The position numbers and the translations under genes are program-made. Positions 4,003 to 18,599 of a stretch of 64,000 nt of DNA are shown here, in pieces; the stretch's first letter is position 1; every line of letters starts with the position of its first letter. The DNA is from Escherichia coli (lineage in GTDB: Bacteria > Pseudomonadota > Gammaproteobacteria > Enterobacterales > Enterobacteriaceae): the NCBI RefSeq assembly GCF_009931435.1, contig NZ_CP043414.1; one strand, 5' to 3'. The notes beneath the pieces are model-generated. The model was not told the origin of the DNA and ran no database searches. It saw only the letters and a list, made by a program, of their open reading frames with translations.

Positions 4003-4701
4003 TTAAACGCTTTCTAACTGTTCTGCTGTGATGCTACCCAGATGTTGCGTTTTTCCTGCCAGATAGCGTGTTTTAAAGCGGGTGAAATACTCGCCTAGAC
4101 CTGCCGCCGCTCCGGTATCGCCGGCCATATCTAACAGTGCGATGGCAACTTCGGCAGTGCAGTATTGGCCTTCAGCCTGGGCTTCACGCAGGCGATAGGC
4201 AGAAAGCCGGGAAAGATCGACGGAAATGACGGGAAGATTATCCAGATACGGACTTTTACGAAACATCTTGCGAGCTTCCGGCCAGGTACCATCGAGCATG
4301 ATAAACAGCGGTGGCTTACCAGCAGGTGGTGTAAAAATCACTTCCCGTTGCTCATCAGCATACGAGGCGGGAAAGACCACCATTGGCTGATAATCCGGGT
4401 TTTGTACCAGAGCCAGCAAATCCTGCGAGGGTTCGGTACGGGACCATTGAAACGCGACGGTATTTGGCAAGATATCGGCAATCAGACGCCCGGTGTTACT
4501 GGGCTTCATTGGCTCGGTGTCGAACATCAGCAAACAAAAGCGACTTTTAGCTTCCGCTGGAGTAATTGTCGAACAGAGACATAATTTCTCTGGCAAAAGA
4601 CAGCGTTGGCAGCGACGAACGCGATTACCGCGGGCAAGAAAAGGACGTGTTGCGCGCGCAATACGCTCGGCGCGTAACTGGAGAACAGCGTTTTCGGTCA
4701 T
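4003..4701 (-). CDS. tapT: DTW-domain protein, tRNA-uridine aminocarboxypropyltransferase family
   Basis: ORF track gives 254 aa; start moved to ATG at 4699-4701 (MTENAVLQLRAERIA, 232 aa); DTW motif LDGTWPEA and CxxC pairs present. Confidence 0.8.
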   Translation of the reverse strand: MTENAVLQLRAERIARATRPFLARGNRVRRCQRCLLPEKLCLCSTITPAEAKSRFCLLMFDTEPMKPSNTGRLIADILPNTVAFQWSRTEPSQDLLALVQNPDYQPMVVFPASYADEQREVIFTPPAGKPPLFIMLDGTWPEARKMFRKSPYLDNLPVISVDLSRLSAYRLREAQAEGQYCTAEVAIALLDMAGDTGAAAGLGEYFTRFKTRYLAGKTQHLGSITAEQLESV

Positions 4702-4769: not shown

Positions 4770-5189
4770 TTAAAGCGATTCGTTCAGCCAGCTATCGAAA
4801 GGTGCTTTTGGTACTGCGCCATTAAGCATGTCGACAACCTGACCGTTTTTGAAAATCATGATTGTCGGAATGCTACGAATACCAAAGCGGCTGCTTAATT
4901 CACGTTCAGCTTCGGTATTCACTTTCACAAAGCGCACTTTACCGCTACGTTCTTGCGCAACATCTTCAAAAATTGGTGCGAAATTACGGCAGGGGCCGCA
5001 CCACGGCGCCCAGAAGTCGATCACCACAGGCAGATCATCTTTCAGCAATTTATCGAGCGTTTCACCGGTCGCATTAATCACCTCTCCGTCAAATAAGTCG
5101 TGACCGCAGCGTCCGCATTTTGCCGCATCTTCGATCCGATCGTCGGGAATGCGATTGATGGCCTGACAATGGGTACAAACGGTATTCAT
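4770..5189 (-). CDS. trxC: Thioredoxin 2 with N-terminal zinc-finger extension
   Basis: 139 aa; N-terminal CTHCQ...CGRCGH double CxxC, WCGPC active site. Confidence 0.92.
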
Positions 5190-5395
5190 AACTAACCTCG
5201 GGATGAGTAAGGAGACTTATCGGCAACGACGCCGGTATGTTTCTAATATGTTACATATTATCGGGGACATTGTTCCAGACAACAATCTGTTTTATTCAAT
5301 AGGTATGATAGTCGCAGGCTTTGGTACGAAATCATGGCGAACCGCGCGCACTTCGGGTAATCTGCGCGCTTCGCGCAGCGCTGGTGGAGAAAAGC

Positions 5396-6433
5396 ATGAA
5401 CGATGAGATGAAAGGTAAAAGCGGCAAGGTCAAAGTGATGTATGTCCGCAGTGATGATGATTCTGATAAACGTACCCATAACCCGCGTACCGGGAAAGGG
5501 GGCGGGCGTCCAGGAAAATCTCGTGCCGACGGTGGCCGTCGCCCCGCCCGCGATGACAAACAAAGTCAGCCCCGTGACCGCAAGTGGGAAGAGTCTCCGT
5601 GGCGCACGGTTTCCCGCGCGCCGGGTGATGAGACGCCGGAAAAGGCCGATCACGGTGGCATCAGTGGTAAAAGTTTTATTGATCCGGAAGTGTTGCGTCG
5701 TCAGCGTGCGGAAGAAACCCGCGTCTACGGCGAAAACGCCTGTCAGGCACTGTTCCAGAGCCGCCCCGAAGCGATTGTTCGCGCCTGGTTTATTCAGAGC
5801 GTAACGCCACGTTTTAAAGAAGCATTGCGCTGGATGGCGGCAAACCGCAAAGCGTATCATGTGGTGGATGAAGCGGAACTGACCAAAGCGTCAGGCACGG
5901 AACATCACGGCGGCGTTTGCTTCCTGATCAAAAAGCGTAACGGTACAACCGTGCAGCAGTGGGTAAGTCAGGCAGGTGCGCAGGATTGTGTACTGGCACT
6001 GGAAAACGAATCTAACCCGCATAACCTGGGTGGCATGATGCGCAGTTGCGCGCACTTCGGCGTGAAAGGCGTCGTGGTGCAGGATGCGGCGTTGCTGGAA
6101 TCCGGTGCGGCTATCCGTACCGCAGAAGGCGGTGCAGAGCATGTTCAGCCGATTACTGGCGACAACATTGTTAACGTGCTGGATGACTTCCGCCAGGCGG
6201 GTTACACCGTAGTGACCACCTCCAGCGAGCAGGGTAAACCGCTGTTCAAAACCAGTCTGCCAGAGAAAATGGTGCTAGTGCTGGGTCAGGAATATGAAGG
6301 GTTACCGGATGCCGCACGCGATCCGAACGATTTGCGCGTGAAGATTGATGGTACGGGCAACGTTGCCGGGCTAAATATCTCTGTTGCAACCGGCGTTTTG
6401 CTTGGTGAATGGTGGCGTCAGAATAAAGCCTGA
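5396..6433 (+). CDS. yfiF: SpoU/TrmH-family RNA 2'-O-methyltransferase with basic low-complexity N-terminal extension
   Basis: ORF track 370 aa; start moved to ATG 5396 ([14 protein letters not shown], 345 aa); C-terminal SpoU-like region, N-terminal K/R/G/D-rich ~95 aa. Confidence 0.8.
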
Positions 6434-6480
6434 TAAATCAGCCGGGTGGCAACGCTGCCATCCGGCGTTTTCCTGCAAAT

Positions 6481-9693: not shown

Positions 9694-11028
9694 TCACTCT
9701 TCTGTCGTTTGCGGTGGTACGCCTGTTCCGCTTGGTTTGCGTCGCTTACCAATATTTTTGGTATCGCGATGGCGTTTTTTCACCCGTGGCTTCTCTTTCT
9801 CTTTAGCCTTTTTCTTCTCGGCGCGTTTTGCCAGTACTTTCTTCGATGGCTTGCCGGTCTGCTTTTCGCTTGGCGCACGCGTTTTCGGGCGTAACTCATC
9901 AATAACGCGAGCTTTAATTGGCTCTTCAATATAGCGGCCTACTTTGCCCAGCAGCAGATGGTCATGAGCTTCAACCAGTGAAATCGCGGTTCCCTTACGA
10001 CCAGCGCGAGCAGTACGTCCGATACGGTGTAAATAAGTATCGCCACTGCGTGGCATATCGAAGTTAAAGACATGGCTGACATCCGGAATGTCGATACCGC
10101 GCGCGGCAACATCGGTGGCAACCAGTACGTTTACGCGACCTTCGGTCAGACGCTTGATCGCTTCGTTACGCTTGCCTTGTACCATCTCACCTTCGAGATA
10201 GCAGTTGTTGATGCCCGCTTCGCGCAACCAGTTTGCCAGTTCATGCACACGCTCACGCTTACGCACAAATACAATTGAGCGGGTCGCTTCCGGTTGTTTT
10301 AACAGATGCACCAGTAATGCGGTTTTATGTTCCAGGTCATCGGCGCGGTAATACCACTGATGAATTTTTTTGCGCTCACGGGTGGATGGATTCGCAGAAA
10401 CTTCCACCGGATCTTCAAGCAGACGCTCGGCAAAATCCTGAATGGCATCGCCTTCAAGCGTTGCCGAGAAGAGCAGGGTCTGTTTACGCCAGCGCGTTTC
10501 GCCCGCAATATGTTCGATATCCTGAGCAAAACCCATATCCAGCATTCGGTCTGCTTCGTCGAGGATCAGCGTTTCAACCGCGCGGCAATCGAAGTTCTCT
10601 TCTTTTATGTATTGCAGCAGACGTCCGGTCGTGGCAACCACGATATCCTGGTTTTCGCTGAATACTTCCGCGTGGTTCATATAGGCTACGCCGCCGGTGA
10701 TGGTGGCGATATCCAGATGCGTATGTTTCGCCAGTTCGCGGGCATGATCGGCCACCTGCATTGCCAGTTCTCGAGTCGGGGTGAGGATCAAAATACGCGG
10801 CGGACCGGATTTCTTTCGGGGGAAATCGAGCAGGTGCTGCAACGCTGGCAGCAGATACGCCGCCGTTTTACCGGTGCCTGTCGGCGCAGAACCGAGTACA
10901 TCACGGCCATCGAGCGCAGGCGGAATGGCGGCAGCCTGAATGGCGGTCGGGCGAGTGAAACCTTTATCCTGGAGGGCTTCCAGCAGGCTTTCGTCGAGTT
11001 CAAGTTCGGAAAAAGTCGTTACAGTCAT
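9694..11028 (-). CDS. srmB: ATP-dependent DEAD-box RNA helicase
   Basis: 444 aa; Q-motif, [10 protein letters not shown] Walker [19 protein letters not shown] box, lysine-rich C-terminal tail. Confidence 0.95.

Positions 11029-16799: not shown

Positions 16800-18599
<1,800 letters not shown>

Follow-up and report, generated by a model that had tools for sequence, protein, structure and literature searches.

Within the fold family to which YfiF belongs, the enzymes RlmP, RlmR, Tsr and AviRb each methylate a ribose in a hairpin loop of 23S rRNA [PMC9508554, PMC13232135], and RNA binding by other SPOUT enzymes is helped by positively charged extensions [PMC9508554]. YfiF itself is a gammaproteobacterial paralogue of RlmB, the 23S rRNA Gm2251 methyltransferase, a relationship that had already been stated [PMC1829167]. 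Its disordered, positively charged N-terminal extension is equally familiar, having been described by Tkaczuk et al. and in print since 2007. Few SPOUT methyltransferases of Escherichia coli still lack an assigned substrate; YfiF is among them, and the tail is a known open question rather than a discovery of ours. What is new here is the finding that short motifs inside this tail, as judged by comparing orthologous sequences, are kept more strictly than the catalytic domain. The mapped motifs offer handles to separate the targeting of RNA or partner proteins from catalysis, and a target for the enzyme, once found, would either round off the map of ribose methylation in E. coli, which is supposedly complete already, or require it to be revised.

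Gene, domain architecture and predicted fold

In the window, the 64-kb stretch of E. coli DNA analysed here, yfiF occupies positions 5396..6433 on the plus strand and encodes 345 amino acids plus a stop codon, as given by the list of open reading frames, the RefSeq annotation of a genome with 100% identity and an NCBIfam equivalog match. The N-terminal peptide quoted in an earlier note on this DNA is identical to the translation of this frame, and the range 5396-5700 discussed there corresponds to residues 1-101. The YfiF equivalog (NF008117 / PRK10864) aligns residues 1-345 with profile positions 1-344, tail included, and scores 666.7 bits (cut-off 267). The gene is apparently monocistronic and present in 5425 of 5426 complete E. 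coli genomes; RefSeq labels its product only as 'tRNA/rRNA methyltransferase'.

Pfam assigns residues 110-181 (5723..5938, plus strand) to an L30e-like substrate-binding domain (SpoU_sub_bind, PF08032, E 5.7e-15) and residues 199-336 (5990..6403, plus strand) to a SpoU/TrmH-type SPOUT methyltransferase domain (SpoU_methylase, PF00588, E 5.2e-32; 111.3 bits, gathering threshold 29.7), with no match within residues 1-109. The core (residues 106-345) has a pI of 5.9 and a hydrophobic fraction of 0.40, and falls on the folded side of the Uversky charge-hydropathy plot. AlphaFold2, when supplied with an alignment of 140 sequences, predicts residues 97-345 with a pLDDT above 90; a single-sequence run reached only 38.7, and the alignment-based run was used instead. 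Foldseek retrieved RlmB (1gz0, E 5e-20) as the top match for this model, together with RlmR, Tsr, AviRb and TrmH (E 5e-20 to 1e-9). The comparison concerns the overall alpha/beta fold, which is like that of the solved SPOUT enzymes. According to the model, the YfiF core is predicted to join an L30e-like RNA-binding domain to a SPOUT domain of the SAM-dependent ribose-2'-O-methyltransferase type. This agrees with the earlier proposal of a SPOUT-type domain behind a disordered, net-positive tail, for which both Pfam and AlphaFold2 speak.

The residues expected to carry out catalysis are well preserved. N210, R216 and N327 are invariant in the orthologues of 80 species and E299 is found in 75 of the 80, while across 140 homologues all four are nearly invariant. 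The serine of motif 3, present in 67 of the 80 species, is replaced by Gly325 in Escherichia. Judged by these residues the catalytic site is intact, and YfiF is probably an active 2'-O-methyltransferase.

The gene neighbourhood had also drawn attention. As the earlier note had it, yfiF is divergent from trxC (4770-5189, minus strand; annotated, and matching NCBIfam TrxC) and tapT (4003-4701, minus strand), the latter annotated as a tRNA-uridine aminocarboxypropyltransferase and hence indeed a tRNA-modification enzyme. The arrangement is kept across Enterobacterales loci (trxC in 79 of 80, tapT in 77 of 80) and is absent next to the yfiF homologues of Orbaceae, Pasteurellaceae and the other gammaproteobacterial homologues examined. 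Because this synteny ends at the Enterobacterales, it gives no functional hint, and a functional coupling of yfiF with tapT or trxC was rejected. Just past the yfiF stop codon, between the convergent genes yfiF and ung, a consensus scan located a terminator-like GC hairpin followed by a T-run (6441..6476, plus strand; 11-bp stem with eight GC pairs).

A disordered tail with conserved motifs

The tail comprises residues 1-92 (5396..5671, plus strand) and is best described as a net-positive polyampholyte. AlphaFold2, run with the same alignment, gives these residues a pLDDT of about 50 without secondary structure, and the charge-hydropathy plot places the tail on the disordered side (H 0.297, boundary 0.441). 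The disorder check proposed for the extension of about 95 residues has therefore been run, with both approaches in agreement on residues 1-92. Residues 1-95 contain 11 Lys, 12 Arg, 11 Asp, 5 Glu, 13 Gly, 7 Pro and 9 Ser, corresponding to 24% K/R and 17% D/E, a net charge of +7, a pI of 9.98, a charged fraction of 0.41 and a hydrophobic fraction of 0.18. Of the description as a highly basic, low-complexity segment, the net positive charge stands; 'highly' is overstated, since 17% of the tail is acidic, and low complexity holds for residues ~40-66 and 78-84, the rest containing embedded conserved motifs.

Such a composition is rare in its surroundings. Among 13,790 windows of 90 amino acids drawn from the 53 non-overlapping open reading frames of the 64-kb stretch, the YfiF tail is the sole one that combines a hydrophobic fraction of at most 0.22 with a charged fraction of at least 0.35, and as the single qualifier it lies beyond chance. 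Only two other proteins of the window have comparable basic, hydrophobic-poor segments: SrmB in its C-terminal tail and LepA at its C-terminus. Compared with PDB sequences, the tail gave no stretch above threshold and only compositional noise such as designed armadillo repeats. Similarly, homology searches with the tail alone returned just pieces of YfiF from Enterobacteriaceae, truncated or frameshifted, and no tail module in other proteins.

Comparing 79 distinct orthologues from 80 Enterobacterales species, with identities taken relative to E. coli, divides the tail into blocks of very different constraint. Block A (residues 1-39; 5396..5512, plus strand; dN/dS 0.11) contains the motif GKVKVMYVR (9-18) with 98% identity and a second motif at residues 29-39 with 93%. 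It is followed by block B (residues 40-66; 5513..5593, plus strand), a variable low-complexity spacer of Arg, Asp, Lys and Gly (49% identity, dN/dS 0.36), and by block C (residues 67-77; 5594..5626, plus strand), a conserved motif of 11 residues (93% identity, dN/dS 0.06) whose P68 does not vary in an alignment of 18 sequences with identities down to 32%. Block D (residues 78-84; 5627..5647, plus strand) is a short variable linker (42%, dN/dS 0.34). Block E (residues 85-108; 5648..5719, plus strand) is conserved again (90%, dN/dS 0.05) and ends in a predicted helix, residues 97-106, that joins the tail to the folded core and over which the pLDDT climbs above 90. The corresponding values are 92% and 0.04 for the L30e-like domain and 72% and 0.15 for the SPOUT domain, so that blocks A, C and E, at dN/dS 0.05-0.11, all lie below the catalytic domain.

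The spacer varies in length and keeps its charge. Between the NPRTG motif and SPW it spans 27-78 amino acids across species, the differences arising through RDDRK, DRPRS and RD repeats; in Enterobacter wuhouensis the repeats are tandem copies of 15 nt. Over 74 distinct sequences its net charge stays between +3 and +7, with a standard deviation of 1.1 compared to 4.9 in the null, and the numbers of positive and negative charges are closely coupled (r(+,-) = 0.97).

YfiF is confined to Proteobacteria. A scan of genome contigs yielded Enterobacterales alone, and the taxonomy of the more distant homologues is taken from a few named cluster members. In related gammaproteobacterial homologues the tail ranges from 0 to 365 amino acids. 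Among homologues with 33-68% core identity, 60 of the 62 N-terminal extensions of at least 60 amino acids are net positive, and many homologues that lack an N-terminal tail have a basic, repeat-rich C-terminal one instead. Tails that sit at either end and are nearly always net positive argue for a position-independent electrostatic role. The distant tails keep the charge and not the motifs; even so, K-x-V-F/M-Y and VKVVVK motifs related to block A are found in Orbaceae and Pasteurellaceae homologues, and PW...R.P variants of block C recur in distant homologues.

Start codon and 5' leader

Gene callers differ on the start of yfiF: public databases contain N-terminally longer calls of 408 and 417 amino acids, and the in-frame Met5 and Met15 are candidate downstream starts. 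An annotation artefact, with the true start downstream and the tail never made, is nevertheless rejected and retains practically no credence. Purifying selection acts from residue 1 of block A onwards, with D3 and E4 conserved, the frame stays intact through all the length variation of the spacer in the 80 species, and an invariant Shine-Dalgarno sequence, GGTGGAG at 5383-5389, lies 7 nt upstream of the ATG at 5396. These features of the orthologous genes indicate that the tail is translated. Against the longer calls, the upstream in-frame extension is disrupted by indels in other species.

The Shine-Dalgarno sequence forms part of a conserved leader block, CAC-TCGGGTAATCTGCGCGCTTCGCGCAGCGCTGGTGGAG (5349..5389, plus strand), which in 68 sequences is near-invariant from E. 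coli to Erwinia, Pantoea and Edaphovirga, the flanking intergenic DNA being variable. The block was considered as a structured RNA, an idea we rejected in favour of conserved sequence only: its folding energy is not better than that of shuffled sequence (z = +1.6), its GC hairpin has no covariation support and does no better than shuffles, and Rfam returned no match. A role as a mimic of an rRNA target was also rejected, as local alignments to 16S, 23S and 5S rRNA and to tRNA-Glu are no better than shuffles. A sigma-70 promoter scan of the intergenic region found no site, and by eye the block does not fit the sigma-70, sigma-E, sigma-32 or sigma-54 consensus.

The leader raises the possibility of an autoregulatory loop in which YfiF, through tail and leader, would bind its own mRNA near the Shine-Dalgarno sequence and repress translation. 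The near-invariance of 5349-5389 across Enterobacterales, despite the variable DNA around it, and an iCLIP signal of YfiF on its own mRNA [PMC11066096] are in its favour. Yet the iCLIP construct was plasmid-borne, so the native leader may be absent from it, and the own-mRNA signal may be an effect of overexpression. With neither hairpin support nor an Rfam match or rRNA similarity that would suggest target mimicry, and with a block that could instead act as DNA, in a promoter or operator, we regard such a loop as very unlikely.

RNA binding and the role of the tail

Published work connects YfiF, as a whole protein, to RNA in vivo. OOPS recovered it as an RNA-binding protein in 2024, iCLIP located it on rRNA, tRNA, csrB/C, arrS and chiX besides its own mRNA, and a yfiF knockout grows slowly [PMC11066096]. 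The iCLIP construct was arabinose-induced and carried an N-terminal epitope tag, which adjoins the conserved block A. The top iCLIP motif, AACCTTTACW, has one site in 23S rRNA, at nt 2071-2080 of the fetched copy, in domain V. YfiF has also been co-purified with ribosomal proteins and rRNA-modification enzymes [PMC3384335].

Where it would methylate is less evident. Four sites then lacking an assigned enzyme had been listed [PMC1829167]. In keeping with the earlier note's statement that the RNA target is unassigned, neither RefSeq nor NCBIfam (June 2026) nor the searchable literature mentioning YfiF gave a methylation site or substrate for the protein. The four sites of that list have since been assigned to enzymes other than YfiF. 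Each ribose methylation known from E. coli rRNA and tRNA has its enzyme (RlmB, RlmM, RlmE, RsmI, TrmH, TrmJ and TrmL), which leaves no obvious site for YfiF in either class of RNA.

On balance we lean towards a tail that serves as an RNA-capture and targeting appendage of an orphan 2'-O-methyltransferase or 50S-biogenesis factor. We infer that the tail itself binds RNA and that its motifs confer specificity. The charge-balanced Arg/Asp/Lys spacer would exert a long-range electrostatic pull of low specificity on large RNAs, candidates being 23S rRNA or pre-50S particles, tRNA and sRNAs. Once on a specific RNA or RNP surface, the three short conserved motifs may take on order and so place the L30e-like and SPOUT core on its substrate.

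Short, sharply bounded, conserved blocks within disorder are also typical of peptide docking motifs, and the tail could instead be mainly a module for protein-protein docking or partitioning into condensates, with RNA recognition left to the L30e-like and SPOUT core. The motifs would bind RNase E and the degradosome, RNase R, RluC, PhoL or a ribosomal protein, and the RD/RK-repeat spacer, with its strong polyampholyte character, would drive partitioning into RNP bodies. Physical interactors reported for YfiF include Rne, Rnr, RluC and PhoL [PMC11066096]; it is listed among those partners of RNase E in IntAct that a crosslinking SEC-MS study saw enriched in large particles [PMC13106914] and was pulled down with FkpB [PMC7353009]. 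These interactions come from high-throughput pull-downs, however, and may be bridged by RNA, and tails that keep charge rather than motifs and may shift to the C-terminus are easier to reconcile with a general attraction to RNA than with a fixed protein partner. We therefore consider docking a rather unlikely main role. RNA capture has difficulties of its own, namely the share of acidic residues, motifs that could equally be protein-docking sites, AlphaFold2 models that give no clue to how the motifs fold, and tail-only searches that yielded no related module pointing to a partner.

A further alternative sees YfiF mainly as a factor for ribosome assembly or as an RNA chaperone, acting independently of methylation. 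Selection would then favour binding by tail and L30e-like domain, and catalysis would play a secondary or conditional part. This alternative likens YfiF to yeast Mrm1/Pet56, as Mrm1p fulfils an essential function that does not depend on its methyltransferase activity [PMC1829167], and to SPOUT dimers that act as structural factors in assembly intermediates of the mitoribosomal large subunit, where the structural neighbours MRM3 and T. brucei SPOUT proteins are found. The stronger constraint on tail motifs and L30e-like domain (dN/dS 0.04-0.11) than on the SPOUT domain, Gly325 in place of the usual serine in Escherichia and the lack of a known unassigned ribose-methylation site in E. coli rRNA or tRNA fit this picture. 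But the complete or near invariance of N210, R216, E299, N327 and the SAM-pocket motifs speaks for catalysis having been kept, and the lower conservation of the SPOUT domain may merely reflect surface residues; the proposal strikes us as unlikely. Equally doubtful is a reading in which the tail, as a motif-bearing targeting module under more constraint than the catalytic domain rather than a generic basic tail, would direct conditional 2'-O-methylation outside the canonical rRNA and tRNA sites, for example of CsrB/C, ArrS or ChiX, or a methylation-independent 50S maturation step near 23S domain V; the invariant 5' leader might serve to tune YfiF expression.

Comparison with known systems

Basic tails are also found on proteins that act on pre-ribosomal RNA, and the RNA helicases of ribosome biogenesis offer an analogy. 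SrmB, a 50S-assembly helicase encoded in the same window (9694-11028, minus strand), resembles YfiF in having a hydrophobic-poor, K/R-rich terminal tail, in this case a C-terminus with a net charge of +17 over 40 amino acids. DeaD and RhlE carry basic disordered extensions as well, and the tail repeats of DeaD resemble the GERR/DRPR-type repeats of distant YfiF homologues. The YfiF tail differs in being N-terminal, far more acidic and equipped with sharply conserved motifs, and the likeness implies no homology.

Among enzymes of related fold, the mitochondrial MRM1/Pet56 and MRM3/RNMTL1 are clade-3 NTD-SPOUT 2'-O-methyltransferases, and MRM3, a structural neighbour of YfiF, has been seen on 39S assembly intermediates. 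Their N-termini show no motif similarity to the YfiF tail; the basic N-terminus of MRM1 and MRM3 includes an organelle-targeting presequence, for which bacteria have no need. RlmP/YsgA (Gm2553), RlmR/TTHA0275 (Um2552), Tsr/NHR (Am1067) and AviRb (Um2479) belong to the same fold family and have defined target sites, and none of their solved chains matches the tail. The best match in both sequence and structure is RlmB (YjfH; PDB 1GZ0). It aligns to YfiF residues 108-342 and is without a counterpart of the first ~107 residues; identity is only ~27%, and YfiF stays below the RlmB equivalog cut-offs (TIGR00186, 118.2 vs 160.15 bits; NF008386, 91.4 vs 366). What the two proteins share is the core, an L30e-like SpoU_sub_bind domain with a SPOUT domain (presumably knotted in YfiF too), and the residues of the catalytic motifs.

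Composition and disorder of the YfiF tail

The ORF at 5396..6433 (+; 345 aa) begins with the peptide quoted in the earlier note, and nearly all complete E. coli genomes (5425 of 5426) match region 5150-6480 by megablast. Their annotation names the gene yfiF, 'tRNA/rRNA methyltransferase', with trxC and tapT divergent, as had been proposed, and ung convergent. The assignment as a SPOUT-type methyltransferase agrees with this and with Pfam, which assigns residues 110-181 to SpoU_sub_bind (the L30e-like domain), residues 199-336 to SpoU_methylase, and no domain to residues 1-109. The NCBIfam equivalog PRK10864 spans the entire protein, tail included; scores for the RlmB, TrmH and TrmL equivalogs fall under their cut-offs.

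The charged residues of the stretch 1-95 are 11 K, 12 R, 11 D and 5 E, beside 13 G, 7 P and 9 S; its net charge is +7, its pI 9.98, its charged fraction 0.41 and its hydrophobic fraction 0.18. The remainder of YfiF has a pI of 5.9 and a hydrophobic fraction of 0.40. A charge-hydropathy plot puts the tail far into the disordered side of the boundary and the core on the folded side. In an AlphaFold2 model built with a 140-sequence alignment, residues 1-92 have a pLDDT of ~50 without secondary structure, and residues 97-345, which open with a helix (97-106), exceed 90. Of 13,790 segments of 90 aa drawn from 53 ORFs of the 64-kb window, only the tail combines a hydrophobic fraction of at most 0.22 with a charged fraction of at least 0.35. 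Together these results confirm the earlier observation of a disordered extension. Its description as highly basic and of low complexity needs amending: the charge is net positive, but the tail is a polyampholyte whose basic core lies at residues ~25-62, and complexity is low only in part. Apart from this tail, strongly basic 40-aa segments poor in hydrophobic residues occur in only two of the window's proteins, both ribosome-associated: in the C-terminal tail of SrmB (net +17; gene 9694-11028, -) and at the C-terminus of LepA/EF4 (net +13; gene 16800-18599, +).

Conserved motifs and a charge-balanced spacer

Alignment of yfiF and its flanks from 80 species-level Enterobacterales genomes, with E. 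coli as reference, divides the tail into alternating conserved and variable blocks. Block A (residues 1-39) is 98% identical to E. coli over 9-18 and 93% over 29-39 (dN/dS 0.11), block C (67-77) 93% (0.06) and block E (85-108) 90% (0.05). Between them lie the variable Arg/Asp/Lys/Gly stretch of block B (40-66; 49%, 0.36) and the variable linker of block D (78-84; 42%, 0.34). Corresponding figures are 92% (0.04) for the L30e-like domain and only 72% (0.15) for the SPOUT domain. Blocks A, C and E have lower dN/dS than the catalytic domain, which means that purifying selection acts more strongly on their short motifs.

Bounded by the NPRTG and SPW motifs, the variable spacer ranges from 27 to 78 aa among these orthologues, the differences arising via RDDRK, DRPRS and RD repeats. 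In Enterobacter wuhouensis yfiF (locus L014, 3176-3273) two overlapping 15-nt tandem-repeat arrays of 2.7 and 4.7 copies encode RDDRK/DRPRx pentapeptides; the corresponding E. coli region holds no tandem repeat. The numbers of basic and acidic residues increase in step (r = 0.97), so that net charge is kept at +3 to +7, with a standard deviation of 1.1 against 4.9 expected with random charge signs, the sequences being related and the samples not independent. A mis-called start was considered and is ruled out, because the reading frame is kept in all tail length variants of the 80 species and GGTGGAG, 7 nt upstream of the ATG, is invariant.

Appendages in distant homologues

HMMER, run exhaustively against cluster representatives at 50% identity, returned 12,303 hits, of which the best 150 all share more identity with the YfiF core (33-68%) than with E. 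coli RlmB (20-34%). Within these 150, N-terminal extensions measure 0 to 365 aa; of the 62 with a length of at least 60 aa, 60 are net positive. Named cluster members place homologues in Enterobacterales (Sodalis, Symbiopectobacterium), Orbaceae (Zophobihabitans) and Pasteurellaceae (Lonepinella, Spirabiliibacterium), besides a Corallincola relative and one gammaproteobacterial MAG, in line with the gammaproteobacterial duplication already described in print (PMC1829167). In the Orbaceae and Pasteurellaceae the tail motifs are recognisable as K-P-T-V-F-Y or G-x-VKVVVK, SPW or SPRAP, and RRQxxEE. Great lengthening of the spacer is possible: the metagenomic protein P0127 (607 aa) carries about nine tandem copies of the 32-aa unit RRDDRPRFERDGERKPRFNDDRRSEGRGEG before a core that shares 61% identity with E. 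coli YfiF; P0142, P0152 and P0164 are further extreme expansions.

Many homologues without an N-terminal tail have a basic DRPR/ERPR-repeat tail at the C-terminus instead, and in P0149, P0150, P0154, P0185, P0206, P0261 and P0270 such tails (DRPR/ERPR/RSDK) extend for 50-160 aa. The charged appendage thus appears position-independent. From extension charge, motif variants and C-terminal tails, a predicted disordered, net-positive appendage is near-constant in the subfamily, its position, length and motifs being lineage-specific. Separately, the 135-aa 'YfiF' fragments in many public assemblies (P0301-P0323) are +1 frameshifts at varied points of residues ~79-99, all ending at the stop of a long +1-frame ORF (window 5442-5804); they are possibly sequencing errors or sporadic pseudogenes.

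Leader and neighbourhood

Upstream of the start, a 41-nt leader that takes in the Shine-Dalgarno sequence (5349-5389, +) is near-invariant from E. coli to Erwinia, Pantoea and Edaphovirga (68 Enterobacterales sequences), while the intergenic DNA around it is variable. Nucleotides 5362-5378 could pair as a GC hairpin, with no covariation support and stability not above shuffled sequence; the leader matches no Rfam family and does not resemble rRNA. It may be an operator, a promoter element or a translational control site. Two more conserved blocks, with ATAG repeats, lie in the trxC-yfiF intergenic region (~5240-5315); these, ATGTTTCTAATATGTTACATATTATC and TGTTTTATTCAATnnGTAnnATAGTC, probably belong to the trxC promoter and an OxyR site. 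Dub-seq recorded an unexplained synergy of yfiF-trxC fragments on potassium acetate, for which the intergenic region was suspected (PMC6338753).

Within Enterobacterales, trxC accompanies yfiF at 79 of 80 loci and tapT at 77, and this synteny is absent at the Zophobihabitans, Lonepinella, MAG and Corallincola-like loci. The tRNA-modification neighbour highlighted earlier is therefore present but carries no functional information. In Lonepinella (L084, 2521-3879) the yfiF-like gene is divergent from a pssA-like PLDc_2 gene, and in E. coli pssA is found four genes away from yfiF, perhaps a relic of an older gene order.

A proposed role in RNA capture

The four ribose methylations listed as unassigned by Tkaczuk et al. 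have since been credited to other enzymes, leaving YfiF an orphan. Tkaczuk et al. class it as a paralogue of RlmB in which every 2'-O-methyltransferase residue is conserved (PMC1829167), and it is listed as co-purifying with ribosomal proteins and rRNA-modification enzymes (2012 data-mining study, PMC3384335). Among tested knockouts of unannotated RNA-binding proteins, that of yfiF had the strongest growth defect, and iCLIP located YfiF on rRNA, tRNA, csrB/C, arrS, chiX and the yfiF mRNA itself, the methylation target being explicitly deferred to future work (PMC11066096). The construct was arabinose-induced and N-terminally tagged, so that the tag falls on conserved block A. The top rRNA motif, AACCTTTACW (PMC11066096), has a single match in 23S rRNA (L082, the E. 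coli rrnG copy), in domain V at nt 2071-2080 and immediately 3' of the GAAAGACC segment, and was not found in 16S, 5S or the yfiF locus. Literature mentioning YfiF yielded no published substrate, in line with the unassigned target of the earlier note.

The tail is best read as an appendage that would capture RNA and target the enzyme. Its charge-tuned flexible spacer, flanked by short motifs, would take on order upon contact with a specific RNA or RNP surface and so deliver the L30e-like and SPOUT core to its site, probably 23S rRNA or a pre-50S particle. It is unlikely, though worth weighing given that YfiF is listed among RNase E partners, that the motifs instead serve as protein-docking sites or promote partitioning into RNP bodies. 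Somewhat less probable still is that binding rather than catalysis would be the selected function, for which Mrm1/Pet56 and mitoribosomal assembly SPOUTs offer precedent. Both can coexist with RNA capture. An autoregulatory loop through the leader seems improbable.

The tail is a real and correctly interpreted feature, known from a known orphan gene. What we add is its division into blocks, a constraint on its motifs that exceeds that on the catalytic domain, a repeat spacer with balanced charge, and the occurrence of equivalent tails at either terminus in homologues.

Comparison with RlmB and other SPOUT enzymes

The catalytic apparatus looks intact in the alignments: N210, R216 and N327 show no variation, and E299 shows almost none. 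Residue 325 (window 6368-6370) is the motif-3 Ser in 67 of 80 orthologues and Gly in Escherichia, Kluyvera and Entomohabitans (SLNVS to GLNIS), which may affect cofactor handling; RlmB, unlike E. coli YfiF, has Ser at this position. RlmB (1GZ0) is the closest solved structure, aligning over YfiF residues 108-342 only, and the top Foldseek neighbour of the model (E 5e-20). It is followed by RlmR, the thiostrepton- and nosiheptide-resistance methyltransferases, YsgA/RlmP and AviRb, and further by SPOUT dimers on mitoribosomal large-subunit assembly intermediates.
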